From Alphaproteobacteria bacterium (lineage in GTDB: Bacteria; Pseudomonadota; Alphaproteobacteria; Rs-D84), in assembly GCA_009784275.1 (NCBI GenBank), contig WRCA01000003.1:38817-70816 (forward strand): 32,000 bases of DNA. Reading direction: 5' to 3'. Below are positions 8,807 through 32,000 of the stretch, one piece after another (within the stretch, counting starts at the first letter, position 1; each line of letters opens with the position of its first letter). Below the pieces are notes generated by a model. The model worked only from the letters and a program-made list of their open reading frames with translations. It searched no databases and had not been told where the DNA came from. The position numbers and the translations under genes are program-made.

Positions 8807-11599
8807 TTAGAACTCCATACCTACACGATATCCAACCTCCGTAGTGTCACCTGCCAGACGGCATTTTATCTTGCTTCCGATGCTGTCATACCATTCTTTA
8901 TATGCTGCATCTTGCTTGTCTTTTTCAAGCTGGTTCGCCTTTTCTTTTATGGCATTGGCTGTTTCAACACCACCCCATATTCCACCGGCAGTTCCCAACG
9001 CACCCAATGTAATCGCACCGGCAGTACCCCAAGCTTTATGCTGCTTTTCACGATCCGACTTAACACCGGCTTCTCGTGCAGTCTTATCTTTCGTCAGTGC
9101 ACTAATCATTCCTCTGATTTTTCCGGCAGTGTTAGCGGCATCATCATCTGATTGCTCTGATTGCTCTTCGCAAGTATAACCAGAGAATTCTCTACCATCA
9201 AGATTGCACATAGCTGGTTCTTTCGCGATTACCTTACTTTTTTTGCCATATTTTTCAGAGCACCAATCCAAATCACGTGCCACAGCATCTGCATTAGTTA
9301 GGCATTGGTTAATTTCTCGCATTTTTTCGTCATTCTTCTGCGCTTTTTTATCACCACTACTGGCGATCTTGTCACCCAGCGTATATCCGCCCCAGGCTCC
9401 CAATCCACCGCCTGCCAGGCCAGCAATGACCCCTACCAGGGAACCAACCTTGTTGGCACGTGCATTATCCTTTTTCACTTCATCTTTTGACCTAGCTTCA
9501 GATTCACGAATTTTTGCTTCTATGTTATCCAAACATGTTTCGGTTAACCATTCCCCACAACCTACAACCAAACCTACATTCTTTTCGCCCCAGAAAGAAT
9601 AGATGCAACCATCAATATTCTTTACAGGTTGATTTTTAATCAATATCGTAAGTGTAGCTTCGCGCTGGCAAGCCCCACCAAAGGTATCTTCGGTCGCTTT
9701 TCGCCTTGTTCCCTGTTTGTCGGTTTGATTCGGCAATGCAGTCCATGCATACCCTTCCCCAGCATCTTTACAAGCAGTCTTGGCTTCATTTGCTTTTCTT
9801 TCAAACATGCTTTGCACGCGCGTGCCTATATCAGCAACCAGAGTTCCAAATATATTACGTTCTTGCTCTGCGCACATTGCAATAAACTTGGCATCCGCAC
9901 TGACTGTTGCAGTGGGCAAGTCACCCAGGGAATATGTATAATTCGGGCTGCAGAATGAAAGCGTGCTGGATGATGACGATGAGGCTGACAACCAAGCATT
10001 TCGTGCGCCACTGGATGTTCCCCAAGAATCTGCACTCGCCCCCGATGATTTCTTTGCATATTCAACGTCGAAAAATTCTCTACAGCTTTTATCTTTCTTT
10101 ACTTCCAGCAAACATAATCCTTTGGCCATTTCTCCGTCAAATCCGCCATTCCAAGCCTTTCCGGTCACAACACCGTTAACAACTGTTTTGCTTTTCATGT
10201 TTTTTGCATCAATACTGGATATAAAGCAAGCGGTATAATCCGGGGCGCATTCATTTGTAACGCAATCTTCTGCCACAGTTTGGCATGCTCGGCGCATATT
10301 AGCAACCATGTCTTCATTAAACATTTCCGACAATTCTGTACTTAGTCCCGAAATCGCGCCAATAGAATCTTGTATCCAAATTTTATCCCATGCCTCCGAT
10401 GGGCTACCGCCCTTACTGACAAAGACATCCAAGCAGCTTTGATTATTTTTAATCACATTTTCGCACTGGGCGGTAATCCCCGCACCTGCTTTGCCTTTTA
10501 TGTCCACTTTGCCGGACTGAACATCTTTGGATAATCCATAACACCGCGCATAACTACCTTCGCCGCAAGCATTAACCGCACAGTTTCGCATTGCGATTTT
10601 ACAAGTATTCGCCGAAGCCAATGCTGCCGTTGCCGCCCATTCTTTTATTCTGGACTGATTCATCTTGAATCGCGCATTAACACCGGTTTCCATTATATTT
10701 CTATATACTCTGTCTATAGAACTACGGTCTATCAGATCGGCTTCTTTTGCCAATGTGCCTTCTACTACCATAAAGCATGATTCATCAGAGCCAATGGTTT
10801 CGCGGCATTGTTCCCTTAAATAGCTATTTACATTGCTGCTGCCCCAACCCAGATTTTTCATATAATTCATTATAATATTGGGATTCAAGCGCAAACCTGT
10901 TTCAGATGAATCAACTATATTCACCATATTATTGGCATCATCATTTGTAAAGCCATCAACATCGATACATTTATGCGGCGAACCGGCACATGCTTGTTTT
11001 ATACAGTCATCCGCAGTTTCGTTACAACTTTTTACAGAATTTGCCGATGCCCAGCTGTTGCCTTCTTTTATCCACATCTGCACCGGGCTGTCCCCCGCAA
11101 CTGCTATATCTTGCAAAGCCGGCGAGAACGAGCGTTTTACAACCACAGATTCTTCTTCGCAAATCGCGCGATTGGCAACAGATGAATCATCACTGGTCGT
11201 TACAGAATTTCCAAACAGCGCCTTTATTCCATCCGCAGGGCATCTAGCCAACTCGTCCTGACACAAAATTCTTTTCTTATTAAATTGCTTTATGTTAGAG
11301 CAAAGCTGAAAATTTTCTTTACAAACATCGCCGCTCCGCAAGCAGCCTTCGTATTCCCGGACGCAATCACTGGTGGAAAATCTTTTCTTCAGTGGTTCCG
11401 CGCAAGTCGCCAACAGTCCGGCATCGACCGAAACCGTGCCGATTGTTCGAATGCCCGAAAGCCCTGCCAAGCTGGGCAGCCGCGCCGCCGTCGCAGGACG
11501 TGCAGTTGGTGTCCCAACATAGCTGACAGCCCCCGCATCACCAAACGAAATGACGGACGCCAACGGCAAAACAAGACCAACAATTAATGCTTTTTTCAT
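8807..11599 (-). CDS. giant cysteine-rich secreted/envelope protein (hypothetical)
   Basis: ORF 8807..11635. I prefer ATG 11599 (MKKALIVGLVLPLASVISFGDAGA, a signal peptide, with an AGGTG SD 5 nt upstream). I count about 38 Cys, including three copies of a C-x6-C-x4-C-x6/7-C module. Two glycine-zipper-like hydrophobic segments lie near the C-terminus (VGSLVGVIAGLAGGGLGAWGG; AWGTAGAITLGALGTAGGIWGG). The protein ends GYRVGMEF. Confidence 0.85.
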   Translation of the reverse strand: MKKALIVGLVLPLASVISFGDAGAVSYVGTPTARPATAARLPSLAGLSGIRTIGTVSVDAGLLATCAEPLKKRFSTSDCVREYEGCLRSGDVCKENFQLCSNIKQFNKKRILCQDELARCPADGIKALFGNSVTTSDDSSVANRAICEEESVVVKRSFSPALQDIAVAGDSPVQMWIKEGNSWASANSVKSCNETADDCIKQACAGSPHKCIDVDGFTNDDANNMVNIVDSSETGLRLNPNIIMNYMKNLGWGSSNVNSYLREQCRETIGSDESCFMVVEGTLAKEADLIDRSSIDRVYRNIMETGVNARFKMNQSRIKEWAATAALASANTCKIAMRNCAVNACGEGSYARCYGLSKDVQSGKVDIKGKAGAGITAQCENVIKNNQSCLDVFVSKGGSPSEAWDKIWIQDSIGAISGLSTELSEMFNEDMVANMRRACQTVAEDCVTNECAPDYTACFISSIDAKNMKSKTVVNGVVTGKAWNGGFDGEMAKGLCLLEVKKDKSCREFFDVEYAKKSSGASADSWGTSSGARNAWLSASSSSSSTLSFCSPNYTYSLGDLPTATVSADAKFIAMCAEQERNIFGTLVADIGTRVQSMFERKANEAKTACKDAGEGYAWTALPNQTDKQGTRRKATEDTFGGACQREATLTILIKNQPVKNIDGCIYSFWGEKNVGLVVGCGEWLTETCLDNIEAKIRESEARSKDEVKKDNARANKVGSLVGVIAGLAGGGLGAWGGYTLGDKIASSGDKKAQKNDEKMREINQCLTNADAVARDLDWCSEKYGKKSKVIAKEPAMCNLDGREFSGYTCEEQSEQSDDDAANTAGKIRGMISALTKDKTAREAGVKSDREKQHKAWGTAGAITLGALGTAGGIWGGVETANAIKEKANQLEKDKQDAAYKEWYDSIGSKIKCRLAGDTTEVGYRVGMEF

Positions 11600-11602
11600 T
11601 CT

Positions 11603-11630
11603 CACACCTACATTTTCATACCTACATTTT
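11603..11630. repeat. tandem 14 bp direct repeat immediately upstream of the giant gene start
   Basis: Plus strand: CACACCTACATTTT (11603..11616) and CATACCTACATTTT (11617..11630), 13/14 identical. In gene orientation these read AAAATGTAGGTATG AAAATGTAGGTGTG AGA ATG. Confidence 0.6.
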
Positions 11631-11668
11631 ATCATAAAAAGATATATAGAAAAAGGGAAAAAGAGAAA

Positions 11669-13432
11669 TTATTTCATCAAACTGTGAACAGCTGCGGCGA
11701 AGTCTGGCGCTTTGGCCAAATAGTTGCCCGATGTCAACATATCCGCGCCCGCATCCCAGCACTGCTTTGCTGTCTCTGGATTTATTCCGCCATCAACGTT
11801 GATTCTAAATTTCAGATTATGCTTCTTTCTGGTATTTGCAAGAGCTGCGACTCGTGACAAAGCCGCCGGCAAAAATTTCTGCCCGCTTGGCCCCGGCACC
11901 ACCGACATAACCGAAACATCGTCCAAGTCCCGCAAGATTGGCGCGATTATATCAATCGGACTTTCGGGGTGCAGCGCGATTCCTGCGCGCTTTCCTGCAG
12001 CCTTTATTTCTCGCAACGCACGCAATACTCCATTTGTACCGCTGGATACGATTATTGTGTCCGCGCCAGCGGCAATTGCCTCAGCCGCCCACTGGGCCGG
12101 ATTCTCGGTCATCAAGTGCACATACAGATGCGCCGTAGTATGCGCGCGAATAAATTTTATCTCGTCAATTCCGCCGAGTATTTTTTCCACATAAAATCCA
12201 TCCATCACCTCTACATGAATTATGCCGATGCCGGCATTTGCGAATTTCGCATAAGTCGCAGCATTGCGCATATCGAAAGACTGGGTGCTGGGCATTATTG
12301 GAATAATTCCGCGATGACGCTTCTTGGTTCTAACTTTGAAGAAAGCAATCACAGCATCGAAAAACTTTTCCCATTTCTTGCGGCGCGCAAGATAGCCTTG
12401 TATTCTGGCGGTTTCGCGATTCCATATAAAATCAGCGAGGGCATTTACCGCCGCAAACGGCCCCAAGTTTTCAACCTTTACGCCAAAAGCTTGCTCTATG
12501 GTATCTGCTAATCCTGGAATACCGGAACCTCCGCCGCTGATAAAGATTTTCTGAACGCGATATTTTTCCAAAGCGGGACTTAATGAAGTCTCTACGACAC
12601 TCATCATCCTGCGGAATATACCCATCGCATTATCGCTGATGTCAAATCTTGAAAATTCATATCTTGCGTCTGCCGGGGTAAACCTGTCCATTTCCGTGGT
12701 TATTAACGTCATCCCTGCGATTTTTAATCTTTCCGCTTCCGACATTGATATATGAAAAGCCTCTGACAATTTCCTGGTAATATCAATCCCGCCAATATCG
12801 AACTTTTTAAGCAGCATCGGACCGCGCGCAGTCCATACTGACACAGTTGTTGATGTTGCGCCAAAATCTATGAACGCCGCAGATTCTTTTGGAGAACGAA
12901 CAGTAGACCCCATCAGAAACATAGGGTCGAAAAAGCCTTCGGATTCCAGATGTGCTTCGCGCAACGCGGATTTCGCAAATGCCATTCCCTCATTAGGATA
13001 AGAAATCGAATGGAACAGAGAATCTAAACTTTTATCAATATGTCCCACCGCGCTGGATACATTTTGAAATCCACCCAGGTCATATCGCAATGGGATGATA
13101 TGCATCGGAAAAAAATCTTCATCCCGCGGCATTATTTGCTCTAAAACATCCTGCGGAAGTATTTTATGTTCGCCGCCCCAACTTGTCTTGCGTGAAAAAA
13201 TCTCGGACCTGACATCACCGAAATTTCCCGTAACATATGCGGAATCAAAACGCGCGCCGATTTGTTCTTCCAGGCTGTCGACCGCGGATTTCACCGCATA
13301 GGCGGCGTCCATTGACTCAAAAAAAACCGTTGCCGAAGACTTTATGCGACCAAAGCTTACACGCGCGCCAACCGCACGTACGCCGGATGATCCGATATCT
13401 AAACACAGAAAAGCCCCGTCAGTCAGATTCAT
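11669..13432 (-). CDS. ftsA: cell division protein FtsA fused to a divergent ribulose-phosphate 3-epimerase-like domain
   Basis: Single 587 aa ORF. Residues ~1-370 are an FtsA-type actin fold (CLDIGSSGVRAV, FIDFGATSTTVSVW, IFISGGGSGIPGLADTIEQAFG). An amphipathic basic helix follows (RRKKWEKFFDAVIAFFKVRTKKR). The last ~210 aa are an Rpe-like TIM barrel (PSTQSFDM, HVEVMDGFYVEK, YVHLM, MSVVPGPSGQKF, NVDGGI). The gene starts 3 nt after the ftsQ stop. Confidence 0.85.
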   Translation of the reverse strand: MNLTDGAFLCLDIGSSGVRAVGARVSFGRIKSSATVFFESMDAAYAVKSAVDSLEEQIGARFDSAYVTGNFGDVRSEIFSRKTSWGGEHKILPQDVLEQIMPRDEDFFPMHIIPLRYDLGGFQNVSSAVGHIDKSLDSLFHSISYPNEGMAFAKSALREAHLESEGFFDPMFLMGSTVRSPKESAAFIDFGATSTTVSVWTARGPMLLKKFDIGGIDITRKLSEAFHISMSEAERLKIAGMTLITTEMDRFTPADARYEFSRFDISDNAMGIFRRMMSVVETSLSPALEKYRVQKIFISGGGSGIPGLADTIEQAFGVKVENLGPFAAVNALADFIWNRETARIQGYLARRKKWEKFFDAVIAFFKVRTKKRHRGIIPIMPSTQSFDMRNAATYAKFANAGIGIIHVEVMDGFYVEKILGGIDEIKFIRAHTTAHLYVHLMTENPAQWAAEAIAAGADTIIVSSGTNGVLRALREIKAAGKRAGIALHPESPIDIIAPILRDLDDVSVMSVVPGPSGQKFLPAALSRVAALANTRKKHNLKFRINVDGGINPETAKQCWDAGADMLTSGNYLAKAPDFAAAVHSLMK

Positions 13433-25061: not shown

Positions 25062-25556
25062 ATGAAAAAATTGATATTTGGTGTTTTTCTATCTTTTTTG
25101 TGTGCTTGTGCTCATGTTGAGCATGATATTGAAAATATAAAACCCAATGAAGCTGGATTTGATGATAGTTTTGTAAACAAAATTTTCAGTATTTCTTGCA
25201 AGGGTACCGATGGTGCCGACCCAAAAGACGTTAGCACAAAATGTCGAGAATATGCTTCTAAATTTGCCTTTGAAAAAGGATATTCGTATTTTTCTGTGTT
25301 GGACGAAAATAGTGGTTCTAATAAATCCATTGGAAGTTACACAACTACAACCCCAGTAACTACATATTCCAACAGCGGTGGACACTACGCCTATGGATAT
25401 GGGACATCAACCACATATGTTCCGCAAACACATATTTACAGCACGACAAGCCACTATAAAAACTATGCATTCGTTCTGATAAATGAAAATGAATTAAAAC
25501 AATGGAAAAATTATTTCAAGGTTTCGGATTATTATATCCCAAAAGAATCACAATAA
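25062..25556 (+). CDS. lipoprotein, Thr/Tyr/Ser-rich C-terminal half (hypothetical)
   Basis: 164 aa starting MKKLIFGVFLSFLCAC|AH (lipobox). It contains a low-complexity stretch, YTTTTPVTTYSNSGGHYAYGYGTSTTYVPQTHIYSTTSHY. GC is about 30 percent in the first 100 nt by hand count. Its 3' end overlaps convergent rluD by 9 nt. Confidence 0.75.
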   Translation: MKKLIFGVFLSFLCACAHVEHDIENIKPNEAGFDDSFVNKIFSISCKGTDGADPKDVSTKCREYASKFAFEKGYSYFSVLDENSGSNKSIGSYTTTTPVTTYSNSGGHYAYGYGTSTTYVPQTHIYSTTSHYKNYAFVLINENELKQWKNYFKVSDYYIPKESQ

Positions 25557-26501
25557 GCTTTGCAGCTCTTTCATGTCTTCCGGCAGTTTTGCTTTGAATT
25601 TCATCTGCTCGCCAGTTGTGGGATGTACGAATTCCAGAACTTCGGCATGCAACATCTGTCCTTGATGAGTCTTTAAAAATTCCAAAAGTTCAGGATTTTT
25701 CACACTGCCTAGGCGTGCATTCCCGCGGCCGTACAAAGGATCACATACAACCGGAAAGCCGTGCGCGGAAAGGTGCACACGAATCTGATGTGTTCGGCCC
25801 GTGAACAAAGTGCATCGCATTTTCGAAATGCCCGCATCAGTCCAAACATTTAAAACCTCTGCCAGTGTCTTTGCTTCTTTTCCCCCGCGATTAAGCATAG
25901 ACATCTTTTGCCGATTGCGTGTTGACCGGCCAATATTGCCTTCTATATCTGCCTCTGTCCAATTCGGAACACCCCAAACAAAGGCAATATATTTCCGAGT
26001 TAAATCATGTTCAGCAAAAACCTTTACCAGCGCACGAAATGCCGTATCAGACTTTGCCAAAATAACAACCCCGCTGGTGTCTTTATCAAGGCGATGCACA
26101 ACCCCCGGCCGTAATTCACCGCCCAATATTGACAATTTCGTATGCGCTAAAACGCTGTGGACCAAGGTATCAGCCTCTCGCCCCGCCCCTGGATACATTG
26201 CAACGCCGCGTGGTTTGTTTACCACAATAACATCATCATCTTCAAACAAAATTTCTAATTTAATAGAAGAAGAGGTATCAAATACAAAAGAAGTCGTAGA
26301 TGTTTTTTCTGGAATGATTACCTCGACAACATCGCCTTCTCTTAATTTAGCCGATAATTTTACTTCTTTTTGATTTTGCTTTATTTCGAATTTTTGAATT
26401 TCGTTGCGGGAAAATTCCGGCATTTTCAAAGCTAAAAATTTATCAAGCCGCAAACCAATATCAGATTCCATGGCGGTAAAAATTCTTGGCTGCTCATTCA
26501 T
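25548..26501 (-). CDS. rluD: RluA-family 23S rRNA pseudouridine synthase (RluD-like)
   Basis: 317 aa. N-terminal S4-like region (RLDKFLA). Catalytic motif HRLDKDTSGVVILAKS, plus TGRTHQIRVHL. Confidence 0.92.
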   Translation of the reverse strand: MNEQPRIFTAMESDIGLRLDKFLALKMPEFSRNEIQKFEIKQNQKEVKLSAKLREGDVVEVIIPEKTSTTSFVFDTSSSIKLEILFEDDDVIVVNKPRGVAMYPGAGREADTLVHSVLAHTKLSILGGELRPGVVHRLDKDTSGVVILAKSDTAFRALVKVFAEHDLTRKYIAFVWGVPNWTEADIEGNIGRSTRNRQKMSMLNRGGKEAKTLAEVLNVWTDAGISKMRCTLFTGRTHQIRVHLSAHGFPVVCDPLYGRGNARLGSVKNPELLEFLKTHQGQMLHAEVLEFVHPTTGEQMKFKAKLPEDMKELQSLL

Positions 26502-26964
26502 TCCAATTTTTGCCCTTGGTGCAATCCTGTAATTTTATGGTGATGTTTCGCCCTTTGCCGGATGGAATATCGCAGATAATTATCCCCGTGGTAGTATTTT
26601 GAAATGCATCGCGTGGAACTTCGCGCCAAGCAAAGCGCACTTGTTCTGGCCGTTGCACACAACTTAATCCCATGGATGCATTACTATCCAGCGCAGCGGT
26701 TCTTGACGGGGAAATCCACTGACGCGCGTCTTCCGCCTGACCTGTGCATGGGAATGAATCCAAGAAATATATTTCCATGCCCCTGGACCCGATAGAGTTA
26801 TCGCGCACAAAACTCAAATTAAATTGCGCATAACGCAGCCCTGTAACGCTTTCCCAATCTGTGCTGGTTGAAAACACGCGCGGACAGAGGGTTCCCGGGG
26901 ACGCCGCATTGACCGAAAAAATAAAAAGAGAGAAAAAGAGAAAAAGAGAAAAAAATCTATTCAT
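26494..26964 (-). CDS. small secreted Cys-containing protein (hypothetical)
   Basis: 156 aa starting MNRFFSLFLFFSLFIFSVNA|ASP (signal peptide). The mature part has six Cys. The start is 3 nt after the upstream stop, and the stop overlaps the rluD start by 8 nt (ATGAATGA). Confidence 0.7.
   Translation of the reverse strand: MNRFFSLFLFFSLFIFSVNAASPGTLCPRVFSTSTDWESVTGLRYAQFNLSFVRDNSIGSRGMEIYFLDSFPCTGQAEDARQWISPSRTAALDSNASMGLSCVQRPEQVRFAWREVPRDAFQNTTTGIIICDIPSGKGRNITIKLQDCTKGKNWNE
26930..26953. repeat. three perfect tandem copies of GAGAAAAA inside a 33 nt all-purine tract
   Basis: 26930..26937, 26938..26945 and 26946..26953 are each GAGAAAAA. The surrounding tract 26923..26955 is purine-only. 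On the minus strand it encodes the FSLFLFFSLF part of the signal peptide of the 26494..26964 gene. Confidence 0.7.
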
Positions 26965-26967
26965 GTT

Positions 26968-27450
26968 TTATTCCTTAAATTCCACTCCGATTTTCGAAGC
27001 ACGGACCGGCGTATCTTTAACTGTTACCGAAAAAGAAATTGATTCGCCTGCATCCAATAAAGGCGCTGGTGGTGGGAAAACCTGCGAGGATAACTCCGCC
27101 CCGTTTGCATCCTTTAATACAACAACAACATCAGGCACGCCATTTAATTTGTCCGACTTGTTGGCTATAACGCCAGAAACAACCATGCCGTCAGCCGTCA
27201 TAACAGCAGAGTCCATTTTAATGCCCAACGGTCCTTGTGTTTCGCGCGGCATGTAACGCACTACGGCGATAAATGACAGCACTGCCAAAACCAAAATCGC
27301 GCAAGCCAGCATAAAAATCCAAATACGCGAATTACGGCGCGGCCGGCTCTCGCGCCAAACATGACCACAAACCGCACATTCAAAACTGCGCGCACCATTG
27401 GCATCCTTAACCGAGTATTCTACTTTGCAAAAAGGACAAACTGTTTTCAT
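26968..27450 (-). CDS. MJ0042-type zinc-ribbon membrane protein with DUF3426-like periplasmic domain
   Basis: 160 aa. The N-terminal zinc ribbon is CPFCKVEYSV...FECAVCGHVW, followed by one TM (IWIFMLACAILVLAVLSFIAVV). A beta-rich domain follows (VVSGVIANKSDKLNGVPDVVVVLKDANGAELSSQVFPPPAPLLDAGESISFSV), as in DUF3426 proteins. The start is 5 nt after the upstream stop. Confidence 0.8.
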   Translation of the reverse strand: MKTVCPFCKVEYSVKDANGARSFECAVCGHVWRESRPRRNSRIWIFMLACAILVLAVLSFIAVVRYMPRETQGPLGIKMDSAVMTADGMVVSGVIANKSDKLNGVPDVVVVLKDANGAELSSQVFPPPAPLLDAGESISFSVTVKDTPVRASKIGVEFKE

Positions 27451-27455
27451 GGGAT

Positions 27456-28772
27456 CTATTGTACACCGTATTTGATCATATTCAAGCCATTATATTTTTG
27501 GCGAACTCGATTCTGTATATCATTCAAAGCCCTGACAAAGTCGGAAACTGTCGCATTGCTGTTTGCTGAAACTTTTCCCATTATATCTTCGGTGACGGTC
27601 TTTGATGCTTTTGATTCGGATTTAACGGCATCCTTCATCATCTTATTTAATATCGCAAAAGAAGAATCATGAAATACCGCGGTATCAGATCGAAAATCCC
27701 AAAAATATCCGGGGTTTTCAGAATCCTCTACTTTTTCGGATACGGATAGCCTGGGTGCGATCGTACCCGCATAGCCAACTGTTATGCTGCGCGCAGTTAC
27801 GCGTCCGCGAACCATATCTATGGTCTGATTAACCCTTAATAATGCCGGTTTTTCCGAACCGCTTATGCTTAATCCCGATAGAGTCAAATCCCGCACCCAC
27901 AATTCTCCCGCATCCAGCCTGGAAAGTCGCGCAGTCGAATTCAGATACAGCTCTGTCCCGACTTCCATACTTCTTGAATCTGATGTTAGCGAGCCGGATA
28001 CAAGCGCTTCGCCAGACACGGCGAAAAAAGTATCCCAATTCGGACGCGGGCTGATCTGAACCTTGCGCGCATTGATAAAACCAGCCTTCATAATCTCTTT
28101 AAATTCTGCATTGTACGCATCAACCAAACCTGCTTCTTTTATATTGTATCCGCCCAAGGAAAGATCTGACAACATAGTGGCATCCGCAGAATCGGGAGAT
28201 GGCAATCGCCACAAGAAATCGCCCCCGGATAAAATAGTGCCAGTGCTTTCCACTATCGCGTCTTTGCCGAATTTTACATCAAATACATTTGTCTTGCTGC
28301 GCCAAGTACCGAATGCACCGTATGCTTCGGATTTTTCGACAAAGCCTGTGGATTCTCCGCCCAACTCTGCAATTTCACGCGTACGAACAGGGGAAATATT
28401 TTCGGAATCAAATACCACCAATCCCGACAGAACTGCACGACCGCCGCGATCCCGGGATTTGAGTATGCGCGCTTGGAATCTGTTATATTCCTTGGGCAAT
28501 GTGCCAAATTCTTTTAAGTCGCTTATTCGGACACGCGTTATGGTGGCACCGATCGGGGTCAGTAATTCCCGCTTATGCAGCTCCATATATTTTTCCAAAG
28601 CATCGCGCACCGATCCGATATCCCGCGCTATGCGAACATTCTCGGCACGTATGGTGCGGGTATCCATTTCACGCAATACAAACGGCAATGCAGCGGCGGC
28701 AATCGCAAGCGACAGCAGAATTTCTACCATCATGCTGCCACGTTGATAAAAATTATTTTTTCTCGCCCTCAT
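27456..28772 (-). CDS. large type IV prepilin-like protein, paralogue 3 of 3 (possible PilV-like minor pilin/adhesin)
   Basis: ORF 27456..28784 (TTG). I prefer ATG 28772, which overlaps the upstream stop in an ATGA and has a GGAAG SD. The N-terminus is MRARKNNFYQRG|SMMVEILLSLAIAAAALPF, with Glu at +5 after the putative cleavage Gly. 438 aa, no Cys. Confidence 0.8.
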   Translation of the reverse strand: MRARKNNFYQRGSMMVEILLSLAIAAAALPFVLREMDTRTIRAENVRIARDIGSVRDALEKYMELHKRELLTPIGATITRVRISDLKEFGTLPKEYNRFQARILKSRDRGGRAVLSGLVVFDSENISPVRTREIAELGGESTGFVEKSEAYGAFGTWRSKTNVFDVKFGKDAIVESTGTILSGGDFLWRLPSPDSADATMLSDLSLGGYNIKEAGLVDAYNAEFKEIMKAGFINARKVQISPRPNWDTFFAVSGEALVSGSLTSDSRSMEVGTELYLNSTARLSRLDAGELWVRDLTLSGLSISGSEKPALLRVNQTIDMVRGRVTARSITVGYAGTIAPRLSVSEKVEDSENPGYFWDFRSDTAVFHDSSFAILNKMMKDAVKSESKASKTVTEDIMGKVSANSNATVSDFVRALNDIQNRVRQKYNGLNMIKYGVQ

Positions 28773-30016
28773 TTCGTCTTCCAATCGCTCGATATTATTG
28801 GCCCAAATTCTTCAATTTTCGGCGCATCTAATGTTGTGCTTAAATCATCGCTTGAAATCTTTCGCAGAACGATCCCGGAAAATTTCGGACCACGTTCCGA
28901 AGGAAAAATCCACGCGCCCAGCTTAATCGGGTTCATACTGGTGGAATACATAAGCTCGCTGGATATGGTCATGCCAAATCCTCCGGCGAAAAATAATTGT
29001 TCTGTACTGACAAATGGAGTCGCCAAAACATGCGCGCGAATTCCCGCAAAACCTGACATAGTTCGAATGCTGTCCGATTTCAGTACCAAGTCGCGCTGGA
29101 CATGTACAGGCCCCGTAACATTAACGCTGTCGACAACCACATCGCCCTTTTGCGACCAAACAGTGCCGGTTGCCCCGGTGAATTTCTTTGCGACGATCCT
29201 CCTGAATCCGCTGATATCGCCACTTACACGGACAGACGCCAGCGTGGCTTTCGAAGGATCGATAGATGCGCCATCGGGGAAATAAGCATCCAACGCACGA
29301 ACCTCTGGCGTTTCGGCAAACCAGATATTCGCATTATTTGCCTTTATGTTTTTCGCAAAGACCGTGCCAACACCCACCATATTCTTCTTTGCCATATTCA
29401 AATCGCGGAACATAGTGTTCATGTCAGGGTCATCAAGGTAAGTCCTGTGCAAATACCTGCTCGCTTCATCTTCGCCCAGAATATCTGAAATTCTGAAAAT
29501 CAAATCGCCGGGTGAAAAAAGATCTGAAGAAATGCTCCATCCTGCGGGACTTACTGCTTCGTTGTTTAACGCGACTATGGCTGCATCGGACCCAATATTC
29601 TTCGCAATGTTTAAAACCCTAACTTCTGAAATATTTTCGGGCCTAAAAGCCAGATAAGCATTAATCATCGCGCCACCCTTGGCCGCGCGCTTTTCTATAA
29701 ACCCGGCATATGGATGTAGCATCCGTCCGGATATACTATTTTCCGAATTCTGTTCGCGAATTAAATCAACCTCGCCCTCATCGAATTCCACTTCGGCATT
29801 ATCGGGCCAGTCGGCTTGATTCCTGCGAACATAAGCCATTATAGGATCGCTCCATTCGGATATTCTCCTTGCTTCCGATGCGTCTACTATGCTGTTGCTC
29901 ATCTCCATCACGCCGTTATAAGCGAATGGCAAAATCGCGCCAATGATGGCGATTGCCAGCAGAACTTCCATCAGTCCTGCTCCGCGCTGCTGCCTCTGAA
30001 AATTACGAGCACTCAT
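28769..30016 (-). CDS. large type IV prepilin-like protein, paralogue 2 of 3
   Basis: ORF 28769..30046 (GTG). I prefer ATG 30016, which overlaps the upstream TGA stop (ATGA, 30016..30013). The N-terminus is MSARNFQRQQRG|AGLMEVLLAIAIIGAILPF, with Glu at +5. 415 aa, no Cys. Confidence 0.8.
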   Translation of the reverse strand: MSARNFQRQQRGAGLMEVLLAIAIIGAILPFAYNGVMEMSNSIVDASEARRISEWSDPIMAYVRRNQADWPDNAEVEFDEGEVDLIREQNSENSISGRMLHPYAGFIEKRAAKGGAMINAYLAFRPENISEVRVLNIAKNIGSDAAIVALNNEAVSPAGWSISSDLFSPGDLIFRISDILGEDEASRYLHRTYLDDPDMNTMFRDLNMAKKNMVGVGTVFAKNIKANNANIWFAETPEVRALDAYFPDGASIDPSKATLASVRVSGDISGFRRIVAKKFTGATGTVWSQKGDVVVDSVNVTGPVHVQRDLVLKSDSIRTMSGFAGIRAHVLATPFVSTEQLFFAGGFGMTISSELMYSTSMNPIKLGAWIFPSERGPKFSGIVLRKISSDDLSTTLDAPKIEEFGPIISSDWKTK

Positions 30017-31485
30017 TTGCAATTTCGACGACCTTCCTCTATGCACTGTTTCATATTTATCCGACGTTCCAAACGCTGCCAGAAAATATATTGGCAGACA
30101 ATATTTTGAGCGACTGATTTTTGTTCATATGACGGCATGCCGGGCAAACTGGTTATGATTGTTTTGCAGCTAACTGTCGTACTGTCATCGCCTTCTGGAT
30201 TTTTTAATATATCTATCTTGTCATTATTGATGGAGTCCAGCAAAATATCCGGCAGAACAGAAACTCCGCTGGGCCGAATATCAAGAAGAATTGCGCCAGT
30301 ATCGCCGGACGCCAGAGCGCTGGAAATCTGATCGCGCAATGTCAGATAAGCCGCAGATATAGTCCTGGTTTCTATACCACTTCTCGCGGAATAACTTATT
30401 TCGTTCTGGTCGATAAAAACATCTTGTCCGCGCGAAGCATTTATAAATCCTGATATTTCCATCATCTCGGTATTCAGCGACACATTGTTTAAAATAACAT
30501 CCCCACCAACATCCCAGTCATAAGAACCGGTGAACCCGGCGCGCCCCACTGCCATGGTTAAAGAGTTCAATGATACACTCTCTGCCTCTATACTTCCGGG
30601 CAGGCCATATTTAAAAATAGAATAAGTCGATACCAGTTTCGAACGCAGGTCTCCGCGCGTTATATTCAAAGCGCCAGAACCTTCTCGGGATTGAAATACC
30701 GCCTTGCTAACGGACAGCAGTTCTATCTTGTTCTTGAACCTGCGGTCGGTGCTGGAACCGGAAATCGCCAAGGTTCCAAAATCTGCAAAATCAACTTCTG
30801 CATTCTTTGCCGAAAAAGAAGATATATTTTTTATCGTATAACCGCCCATATCCAAATCGGTATGAAATCTGTTTCTTTCGGGATCGTTTGCATTGCGCCT
30901 GATTAGTTCGGAGAAATCATCGTCTGACGGGATTAGAACATAAAAGGCTTCCTTATCGGGCTTGATTTTAAAGTCTTTCAGATTCTTCTCCCACCCGCCT
31001 ATGCCATGCAGAATACCATCCTTGCCCGAATCCGCGGCATCAGGCCCGATACGAGCCATCAGCTCACGCCGCTTTTGCGGGGACAGATTCCCGCCACGAA
31101 TGACCAGCAGCACCAAAGCTTCGCCATTGTCGTTTTTCGACGCGATCATTGATATCTTCTGCCCTTGCGCGGTCTGGGGGACAAAGCCCAGCGGTAAACC
31201 AAAGGGTTCCAGCAAGTCGGAGAGTGCTTCGCCATTCAGGGAAGATACGCCATATTTGATATTATCTTTGTTGAATCGCACAAAAACGCGGGCAGCACGA
31301 GCAGCATTATTTATATGCTGGGCAGAAACAGAAAGCCCCAGATCACTCTTTCGGGTCGCCAGCTTTTGCGCCAGCATAGGCATAAAGGCCATTACCAGGG
31401 CGATTGCCAGCAGCGCCTGCAATAAAAAATTTCCGCGGCTCTGTTCTGACAAAACAACCCCTCCTACACTCACCATCATAGCCAT
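30013..31485 (-). CDS. large type IV prepilin-like protein, paralogue 1 of 3 (Gln at +5; C-terminal Cys pairs)
   Basis: 490 aa from ATG 31485. The N-terminus is MAMMVSVGGVVLSEQSRG|NFLLQALLAIALVMAFMP. An alternative start is TTG 31452, preceded by a perfect AGGAGG (31465..31460) at 7 nt, which would give a 7 aa leader, MSEQSRG. Four Cys lie in the last ~55 residues. Confidence 0.8.
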   Translation of the reverse strand: MAMMVSVGGVVLSEQSRGNFLLQALLAIALVMAFMPMLAQKLATRKSDLGLSVSAQHINNAARAARVFVRFNKDNIKYGVSSLNGEALSDLLEPFGLPLGFVPQTAQGQKISMIASKNDNGEALVLLVIRGGNLSPQKRRELMARIGPDAADSGKDGILHGIGGWEKNLKDFKIKPDKEAFYVLIPSDDDFSELIRRNANDPERNRFHTDLDMGGYTIKNISSFSAKNAEVDFADFGTLAISGSSTDRRFKNKIELLSVSKAVFQSREGSGALNITRGDLRSKLVSTYSIFKYGLPGSIEAESVSLNSLTMAVGRAGFTGSYDWDVGGDVILNNVSLNTEMMEISGFINASRGQDVFIDQNEISYSARSGIETRTISAAYLTLRDQISSALASGDTGAILLDIRPSGVSVLPDILLDSINNDKIDILKNPEGDDSTTVSCKTIITSLPGMPSYEQKSVAQNIVCQYIFWQRLERRINMKQCIEEGRRNCK

Positions 31486-31493
31486 TTGAAAAA

Positions 31494-31524
31494 ATTATTG
31501 CAATTGATTTTCAGGCAGTGTAAA
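31494..31524 (-). promoter_or_regulatory. weak candidate promoter for the prepilin-like operon
   Basis: Minus strand: TTTACA (31524..31519) and AATAAT (31499..31494). The spacer is 19 nt, which is longer than ideal. It lies in the only sizeable intergenic gap (31486..31597) upstream of the operon. Confidence 0.2.
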
Positions 31525-31597
31525 CTATACAAAGTAACAGGATTATTTTGATGTTTTCCTGTGATTATTTTCCACTATTTAATAAGAAAGACTAACT

Positions 31598-31891
31598 ATG
31601 CAAAACAATAATAATAAAAAGCAAATGTCCGTTGGGCTTATGATCCAGCGATGCCACCGCTGGCGCCAAAAGCGCAAGCAATACATGGACCAAGCGCGGC
31701 AAACACCGGACGAGATAGAGCGCGAGCGTATTCTGCAAATGGCGGAACACTATGGAAGGATAGTGAATGAAGAGCAATCCAAGATAGACACGTCGCGTGA
31801 TCCAAGGGATAAATCTTTCACACGGGAAGAGCCTGATGAAAAGCTGGACGACGAAGATGGCGGCTTTCCTGATTTCATTTCACAGTTGTAA
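31598..31891 (+). CDS. small charged protein, DUF4167-like (hypothetical)
   Basis: 97 aa. QYMDQARQTPDEIERERILQMAEHYGRI resembles the Y..LAR.A...GD....E...QHAEHY.RI core that I recall for DUF4167 proteins of Alphaproteobacteria. The tail is acidic. Confidence 0.6.
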   Translation: MQNNNNKKQMSVGLMIQRCHRWRQKRKQYMDQARQTPDEIERERILQMAEHYGRIVNEEQSKIDTSRDPRDKSFTREEPDEKLDDEDGGFPDFISQL

Positions 31892-31903
31892 GGGGGCGTA
31901 ACG

Positions 31904-32000
31904 ATGCTGGATATAAAATTCATTCGCGAAAATCCTGACGCGGTGCGAAATGCTTGTACCGTAAAAGGCTTTGCAGATTACACGGATGCAATCTTGGAAT
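31904..32000 (+). CDS. serS: seryl-tRNA synthetase (first 32 codons; runs off right edge)
   Basis: ATG 31904 is preceded by an [41 protein letters not shown] matches the canonical SerS N-terminus (MLD.K.IR.NP..V). Confidence 0.85.

Follow-up and report, generated by a model that had tools for sequence, protein, structure and literature searches.

Our analysis of a 32,000-nt stretch of contig WRCA01000003.1 (assembly GCA_009784275.1, positions 38,817 to 70,816; hereafter, the window), which belongs to an alphaproteobacterium of the order Rs-D84, revealed three consecutive minus-strand genes, here designated A, B and C, that probably encode minor pilins of a chromosomal type IVb pilus. In sequence comparisons, the three products emerged as paralogs of each other and as remote but clear homologs of PilV of the I-complex plasmids. 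In these plasmids, PilV serves the type IVb thin pilus both as a minor pilin and as an adhesin at its tip (PMC9045228). Rs-D84, which includes Candidatus Enterousia, is an uncultured gut order whose members have genomes of <1 Mb, lack flagella and are probably dependent on partner organisms (PMC12306168).

PilV homology and prepilin-type N-termini

Gene A (30013..31485, minus strand), a predicted PilV-like type IVb minor pilin gene, encodes 490 aa if read from the ATG at 31485. Its two PilV-like minor pilin paralogs on the same strand, B (28769..30016) and C (27456..28772), encode 415 and 438 aa, respectively, from their ATG codons. As read from the sequence, the stop codon of A overlaps the start codon of B, and the stop codon of B that of C, in an ATGA (30016..30013 and 28772..28769), so that both the coordinates and the overlaps given in a preliminary description of the window were confirmed. 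That description had presented an operon of three genes; the coupling of A, B and C is upheld, but the unit is longer, as genes D and E and rluD continue it in tight packing. The stop codon of C is separated from gene D by 5 nt and D from gene E by 3 nt, while E and rluD share 8 nt. The start codon of A is probably the TTG at 31452 rather than the ATG at 31485, since an AGGAGG box lies 7 nt 5' of this TTG, the public gene call has 479 aa, and the homologs have leaders of 5-7 residues; the leader of A would then be MSEQSRG. Open reading frames (ORFs) on the opposite, plus strand within the operon (e.g., 28063..28746 and 28575..29285) were discarded as by-products, all conserved homologs corresponding to the minus-strand frames.

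The N-termini of the three proteins share a register that agrees exactly with the earlier claim of a class III signal: Gly at -1, Glu or Gln at +5, Leu-Leu at +7/+8, Ala at +11, and Pro at +18. In each protein, a polar leader ending in Arg-Gly precedes an uncharged hydrophobic segment. The mature N-terminus would be NFLLQALLA in A, with Gln at +5; AGLMEVLLAIA in B, following the leader MSARNFQRQQRG; and SMMVEILLSLA in C, following the leader MRARKNNFYQRG, with Glu at +5 in the latter two. As delimited by sequence and conservation, the signals extend over 31378..31452 in A (the leader, Gly-1, and the hydrophobic segment to Pro+18), 29927..30016 in B, and 28683..28772 in C (residues 1-30 in both), all on the minus strand. 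All stop-to-stop ORFs of the window were scanned for the pattern G-x4-[EQ] and, after it, a hydrophobic run free of charges, at most 80 residues from the upstream end; only A, B and C matched.

In the A family, the signal has the form G↓NFLLQALLA (the arrow marks the presumed cleavage site) after a leader of usually 5-7 residues, with G, N, F and Q(+5) invariant; among the 120 matches listed, G↓NF..Q is present in all homologs whose called N-terminus reaches the motif. The invariant positions of the family alignment are G18, N19, F20 and Q23, together with C440, C464, C481 and C489, and these four C-terminal cysteines fit an extracytoplasmic location of the protein. Leaders of 12-16 residues are characteristic of the other two families. 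The B family has the form RG↓(A/S)xxxE(V/T)LLA, where Gly-1 and Glu+5 (G12 and E17) are invariant in 24 orthologs, while the C family has the form G↓xM(L/M)xELLLS, where the same two positions (G12 and E17) are at least 90% conserved in an alignment of 37 sequences. The N-terminal motif is kept across ~80 species-level genomes, though overall identity drops to 35-45%, and for this reason it is taken to be strongly selected and no chance resemblance. These comparisons support the assignment of all three N-termini to the strongly conserved class III (prepilin-type) signals.

The relationship with PilV was established by several comparisons. With an alignment of four bona fide PilV proteins (396-450 aa) as a reference, hhalign scored 97.9% for the A family (E 5e-13, aa 12-234), 97.9% for the C family (E 5e-13, 232 columns), and 96.5% for the B family (E 8.6e-10), the match beginning at the signal peptide in all three. 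A tblastn search with A against 72,556 plasmids matched 1543 records (best E 9e-6); all the listed records are annotated as pilV, and the match always covers residues ~11-230. The N-terminus of PilV from an Erwinia plasmid, RG↓NMLLQAGIALAVVLILTP, has the register of A, including Gln+5 and Pro+18, and the same holds for PilV of the I-complex plasmids (IncI1/IncI2, R64, TP114; PF04917), which has RG↓N(M/F)LLQA... and Pro at +18. Further downstream, the A family and PilV have in common the motif L.R..(6-8)..N.(M/F)(H/x)T.(I/L)DM.G..I.N (around DLDMGG..I.N), and a constant module of ~230 residues homologous to that of PilV is present in A, B and C alike. The Pfam model Shufflon_N matched four of the 37 C-family members, with E-values down to 3.7e-7; in NCBIfam, no model recognizes genuine PilV.

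The proteins are thus not of an uncharacterized kind, as had been suggested, since all three are PilV homologs and the NCBI protein that is 100% identical to A, from a MAG labeled "Alphaproteobacteria bacterium", already bears the name [quoted passage not shown]. Nor are they giant: their 415-490 aa are ordinary for this family, given the lengths of the reference proteins and the comparable size of TP114 PilV, which consists of 345 constant and 69-113 variable residues, the variable tail being encoded by a shufflon (PMC9045228). A size of 400-490 aa is comparable to that of the I-complex PilV proteins in general.

Pairwise BLASTP alignments revealed that A, B and C are paralogous over ~230 N-terminal residues (E 1e-4 to 3e-8), and that they are most divergent after residue ~230. 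Between the families, hhalign scored 97.4-99.5%, with similarity reaching into the middle regions; the closest pair was B and C (99.5%, E 1e-22). Searches of PDB sequences with the single A, B and C proteins produced no match, while the profile of the C family matched the N-terminal helix of a Geobacter pilin (E 0.0026). When 1.84 billion cluster representatives were searched exhaustively with a profile, only 112 related clusters were returned. Ten distant clusters were looked up; the five that name an organism derive from metagenome-assembled genomes (MAGs) of uncultured Alphaproteobacteria or Proteobacteria, and two adjacent genes of one MAG are among those looked up. Given so few related clusters and such named sources, the family is small and lineage-restricted, plasmid PilV aside.

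AlphaFold2 models are consistent with this assignment in their N-terminal parts. In A, a helix at residues 20-75 is followed by a beta-sheet domain (overall predicted local distance difference test, pLDDT, 60), and in C a helix at residues 5-65 is followed by a beta sheet (overall pLDDT 65). The first ~190 residues of both models, with pLDDT of 75-93, contain a helix of 55-60 residues packed on a domain of 5-7 strands and two short helices, a predicted pilin layout. The C-terminal ~80-100 residues are modeled better than the middle of either protein.

Pilus assembly genes in the Rs-D84 lineage

A scan of one genome per species detected relatives of A in 243 genomes, and synteny was counted on 84 loci. 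The best 80 of the 243 are MAGs from the guts of termites, ruminants, mice, birds and humans, and many bear the label Candidatus Enterousia. The synteny that the window shares with this lineage, at 40-68% identity, agrees with the placement of its genome in Rs-D84. The A-B-C block is found in practically all lineage genomes examined, and the larger arrangement, in which a 97-aa gene on the opposite strand is followed by A-B-C-D-E-rluD, recurs in essentially all 84 loci.

Type IVb assembly genes were found close to the block in related genomes. In one Enterousia-type MAG (L076), they lie 2-8 kb 5' of A and encode a PilS-type major pilin with the N-terminus MKSQSG↓RSLIE (PF08805 above the cut-off), a PAP_PilO protein, a PilP-family protein (TIGR03021 above the cut-off), a T2SSE ATPase, and a T2SSF platform protein. 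On two long contigs (L092 and L093), the genes for PilO, PilP, the ATPase and the platform protein follow each other in the pilO-P-Q-R order of the IncI plasmids. Each of these four recurs in 66-80 of 80 further metagenome loci, including termite-gut samples, and one termite-gut sample with such machinery loci is also the source of a relative of the window's clade. An end fragment of a PilN-family type IVB secretin was identified in a further locus (L145). The PilS-type pilin gene is situated ~2 kb from A in 63 of the 84 loci, in the order pilin-dnaX-97-aa gene and then A on the opposite strand. The ATPase has a very large number of homologs, with 85-100% identity among the 120 matches listed and 72-100% across the lineage; one of its sequences (P0165) is listed from a 315,805-bp contig, and a contig that carries A-B-C (L031) is also 315,805 bp long. 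The companion set PilN/O/P/Q/R/S of the I-complex pil system is therefore found, together with the gene order O-P-Q-R, in Rs-D84 relatives.

The genetic setting differs from that of the plasmids. There, pilV is a single gene with a shufflon, located by a prepilin peptidase gene in the plasmid transfer region (the pilN-O-P-Q-R-S-T-U-V operon), whereas A, B and C are three fixed tandem paralogs on a chromosome, syntenic in ~80 related genomes and lying between rluD and serS in the window. Only three short inverted repeats at chance level, and no sfx-like repeats, were detected in 26400..32000; no rci-type gene was found near the operon, and the only tyrosine recombinase among the scanned ORFs of the window is of the XerD type and lies 20 kb away.

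Several other observations were made at these loci. An apparent PilM homolog in the window (11669..13432; TIGR01175/PF11104) was rejected: it is FtsA, with ftsQ upstream and a better score for the Pfam model of FtsA. Directly before pilO, one contig carries genes for a 138-aa lipoprotein and for a 311-aa, beta-barrel-like protein of the outer membrane (L092:6319..7840), neither of which belongs to a known family; the lipoprotein recurs in 56 of the 80 ATPase loci, and both may be pilus accessory or pilotin-like components. On an Enterousia-type contig, a VirB4/TrbE-type type IV secretion ATPase is encoded ~8 kb from the pilus ATPase cluster (L093:1..1873), and the lineage may thus carry a conjugation-like type IV secretion system besides the conjugation-type pilus. 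A conserved 199-aa protein with six predicted transmembrane (TM) segments and no Pfam match is encoded 2-9 kb 5' of A in 12 loci (L067:2313..2945 and 11 others). It was considered as a divergent prepilin peptidase and rejected, as it has no GxGD motif; presumably, it resembles a Yip1-type protein.

In the closest relative of the window (L001, genes at 11631.. and 13070..; also L005), the leaders of B and C are identical (MKRKNKYLRSE, 11 residues), a sequence identity that points to a recent event at the 5' ends, either gene conversion or duplication. The A-B-C genes of L001 are separated by gaps of ~190 nt and have no ATGA overlaps.

Putative tip complex and competing explanations

If A, B and C belong to a type IVb pilus, each would be made as a prepilin with a polar leader ending in Gly and a hydrophobic alpha-1 helix, and a prepilin peptidase would cut after the Gly. 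The alpha-1 helix would then allow entry into the pilus by way of a PilQ-type ATPase, a PilR-type platform, PilO, PilP and a PilN-type secretin, presumably encoded elsewhere in the genome, as they are in the lineage, the filament itself being built of the PilS-type major pilin. The first ~230 residues of each protein would form a PilV-like pilin module, and the beta-rich C-terminal halves would be the exposed, presumably binding parts. The three subunits could co-assemble at the pilus tip, with A outermost and B and C beneath it, and this fixed set would replace the DNA-shuffled PilV variants of the plasmids. The likely job of such a pilus would be attachment to other cells, in a genome-reduced and probably partner-dependent gut bacterium.

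A fixed tip complex is suggested by the coupling of the genes, their constant co-occurrence, and the systematic difference of A, with its Gln+5 and short leader, from B and C, with their Glu+5 and long leaders. Known tip complexes provide models for it. CofB of the CFA/III pilus of enterotoxigenic Escherichia coli (ETEC) and TcpB of the toxin-coregulated pilus (TCP) of Vibrio cholerae are type IVb minor pilins of 420-520 aa, in which a pilin module is combined with beta-rich domains; they form homotrimers at the pilus tip and initiate assembly. They could serve as a functional model for A, B and C, although they are homotrimers of one product, whereas here there would be three paralogs; as neither sequence searches nor Foldseek matched A, B or C to CofB or TcpB, the likeness is one of analogy, not membership. 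In type II secretion systems (T2SS) and type IVa pili, the co-operonic minor pseudopilins GspH-I-J-K and minor pilins FimU-PilVWX prime the filament. Their subunits are smaller (~130-330 aa) and of other families, and no Gsp minor pseudopilin family of Pfam or NCBIfam matched A, B or C; the tip-capping GspK, like A, lacks Glu5, and because Gln+5 of A recalls this feature, A may be the capping subunit. PilV binds the lipopolysaccharide of recipient cells (PMC9045228), and by analogy cell attachment is the most plausible use here. The most specific form of this proposal is that A, B and C make up a 1:1:1 heterotrimeric tip complex, topped by the Gln5 subunit, and that the pilus carrying it, a domesticated type IVb pilus of the conjugation type, is the conserved attachment organelle with which the metabolically dependent Rs-D84 bacteria hold partner cells, the three fixed paralogs replacing shufflon variation. 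We put it forward tentatively, as a possibility with the odds somewhat against it.

A number of results weigh against the assignment of A, B and C to a pilus or against parts of the proposed assembly. Neither the window nor ~60 kb of its 87.5-kb contig contains assembly genes, the neighbors being housekeeping genes, and in the window's clade serS takes the place of the pilin-dnaX pair upstream of A. The operon had been described as detached from any assembly locus; this is true of the window and the ~60 kb, but not of the lineage, which has a type IVb set, adjacent to the block in L076. The related genomes supplied the PilS, PilO, PilP, ATPase, platform and secretin components, but no A24 prepilin peptidase was found in 173 loci and the window (two neighborhoods per genome) by phmmer with two PilU sequences, by a three-sequence hidden Markov model (HMM) of PilU (--max), by a scan for GxGD[x]K with a TM filter, or by Pfam searches of 10 of the 18 groups into which multi-TM ORFs had been clustered. 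In the genome analysis published for Rs-D84, type IV pili are reported for another lineage only (PMC12306168).

Family models are likewise unfavorable. The window proteins stay below the threshold of Shufflon_N (PF04917), A reaching 22.1 bits against a gathering score of 27.5 (E 1.2e-4). The methylation-domain model N_methyl (PF07963) gave a single weak match, to B (E 0.03, 14.4 bits against a cut-off of 21.2), and no match at E <= 0.01 among 24 B-family and 37 C-family members; TIGR02532 had no match to A, B or C in the NCBIfam scan. None of the three proteins therefore reaches the cut-off of the methylation domain by which their pilin nature was to be recognized. However, four bona fide PilV proteins and one PilS used as a control also had no N_methyl match at E <= 1, and, as genuine PilV and PilS fail it too, this test is without power here.

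With respect to structure, the middle parts of the models are poor (pLDDT 30-45 at residues ~190-410 of A and ~185-340 of C), and a Foldseek search of PDB returned nothing significant, which leaves the head fold unconfirmed. Conservation is even along A, B and C, the C-terminal halves being as conserved as the N-terminal ones, unlike in fast-evolving adhesins and unlike in plasmid PilV, whose C-termini are variable. Such a pattern is more in keeping with a structural complex, or with a ligand that is itself conserved, than with adhesins under diversification. Finally, the tip location and the 1:1:1 assembly are drawn by analogy from other pili.

Three other explanations were considered. Each pilus could bear a single tip subunit, either A, B or C, and the gene trio would then be a hard-wired substitute for a shufflon that widens the range of partners. 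In the I-complex plasmids, alternative PilV C-termini confer different recipient specificities (PMC9045228), and A, B and C differ most past residue ~230 and lack both shufflon repeats and a nearby rci-type recombinase gene. However, the ATGA coupling implies co-expression, not choice; all three genes are kept in nearly every genome; their C-terminal halves are conserved as well as their N-terminal halves; and Gln+5 and the short leader of A suggest distinct structural roles. We regard such a division of labor among pili as unlikely, though it is the most credible of the three explanations. Less probable still is a function in a short periplasmic pseudopilus, primed by A, B and C and serving T2SS-like secretion or the uptake of DNA for nucleotide salvage. 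Rs-D84 has no nucleotide biosynthesis (PMC12306168), the ATPase and platform protein of the lineage score best with GspE and GspF models, and among the annotations are "type II secretion system protein" for one C homolog and "pseudopilin PulG" for a distant relative. The accessory proteins, however, belong to type IVb pili, comprising PAP_PilO, a member of the PilP family, the PilN-family type IVB secretin and the PilS-type pilin, and no GspC/L/M or GspG-K families were detected. In one termite-gut genome, ComEC, the DNA-uptake channel, is encoded divergently beside the A-B-C block (L003:7504..9513, minus strand), but this adjacency was seen only in L003 and L014, which are the same contig, and a link to competence was rejected.

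The third explanation, which seems to us improbable, is that A, B and C are relicts, uncleaved bitopic membrane proteins whose helix is a signal anchor for periplasmic domains working independently of a pilus. It would agree with the failure to find a prepilin peptidase in the 173 loci and the window, with the lack of machinery in the ~60 kb of the window's contig, and with the position of the genes in a housekeeping operon with rluD. However, Gly-1 and Glu+5, which an ordinary anchor does not need, are kept over deep divergence; a membrane anchor bears a cost for a charged Glu, except where this residue functions as it does in pilins; and the lineage keeps both the pilin and the assembly ATPase, the latter at 72-100% identity. 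Membership of A, B and C in the PilV family of minor pilins of a chromosomal type IVb pilus thus remains the probable interpretation.

Neighboring genes and biological implications

The operon is embedded among housekeeping genes, with rluD and serS on its flanks, as had been claimed for it. The window also contains secDF, mutL, greA, lptG, xerD, ftsQ/ftsA, lolCDE, ysxC and rsmI, as well as addB of the alphaproteobacterial type, while scans for Rfam families and tRNAs gave no match in it.

Gene D (26968..27450, minus strand), found 3' of C in 80 loci, encodes a predicted 160-aa bitopic protein with the architecture of ZitP: an N-terminal CxxC zinc ribbon, a TM segment (aa 39-57 in a hydropathy window), and a periplasmic DUF3426/FxLYD domain. 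The scores were 27.9 bits for DUF3426 in Pfam (cut-off 27.7), 30.4 for FxLYD in NCBIfam (cut-off 23), and 25.9 bits, below the cut-off of 30.3, for Zn_ribbon_4. In Caulobacter, the periplasmic DUF3426 domain of ZitP is needed for pilus biogenesis (PMC5182063). ZitP of Caulobacter crescentus has the same order of zinc ribbon, single TM segment and periplasmic DUF3426, but is 311 aa long against the 160 aa of D; it serves a Tad (type IVc) pilus via CpaM and binds PopZ. A ZitP-like D fits a role in the pilus without proving one, and D-E-rluD could be an older linkage, or one unrelated to A-B-C. Gene E (26494..26964, minus strand; 79 loci) encodes a 156-aa protein that contains several cysteines and begins with a hydrophobic segment resembling a signal peptide; the protein was assigned to no known family in Pfam and NCBIfam scans. 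The last gene of the packed run, rluD (25548..26501, minus strand), encodes an RluA-family pseudouridine synthase (TIGR00005, 246 bits) and directly follows E in 79 loci.

Upstream of A, a divergent intergenic region (31486..31597), presumably the promoter region, separates A from the gene of a conserved 97-aa protein (31598..31891, plus strand). A single sigma-70-like match was found at 31503..31475, but promoter matches in the scanned region were no commoner than in shuffled sequence, and it is therefore weak. The 97-aa protein surpasses A, B and C in conservation, with a homolog in all 84 loci (57-90% identity), and is encoded on the opposite strand just 5' of A wherever both genes were tabulated. 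Its match to DUF4167 is weak (E 7e-4, below the cut-off); its N-terminal half is basic, and its tail is acidic (…DDEDGGFPDFISQL).

Farther along the window, a 587-aa ORF (11669..13432, minus strand), with ftsQ directly upstream, joins FtsA (aa ~110-330) in frame with ribulose-phosphate 3-epimerase (aa 379-585). As a second lineage genome has one ORF over both parts (L038:20860..22005), the fusion is conserved and no artifact of assembly. In the window, no ftsZ follows ftsA; directly 3' of the fusion gene lies a 942-aa ORF (8807..11635, minus strand; 930 aa in the public call) that has no Pfam or NCBIfam match.

Both the PilV-type pilus system and the PilV label of A were known before; what is new is a probable chromosomal pilus in Rs-D84, absent from the published genome survey (PMC12306168). 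A-B-C is a shufflon-free PilV set, triplicated, chromosomal and vertically inherited, that persists in genomes of very small size. The PilV-type pilus of the IncI conjugative plasmids thus also exists as a vertically inherited chromosomal system, and adhesin diversity in Rs-D84 appears to be handled by gene triplication instead of DNA inversion. Rs-D84 is a widespread gut lineage that presumably lives off other cells (PMC12306168), and a pilus retained in genomes of <1 Mb would be a concrete candidate for its attachment or uptake device. A, B and C, together with the PilS-type pilin, would offer targets for tags or antibodies by which the partner organism might be found in enrichments.

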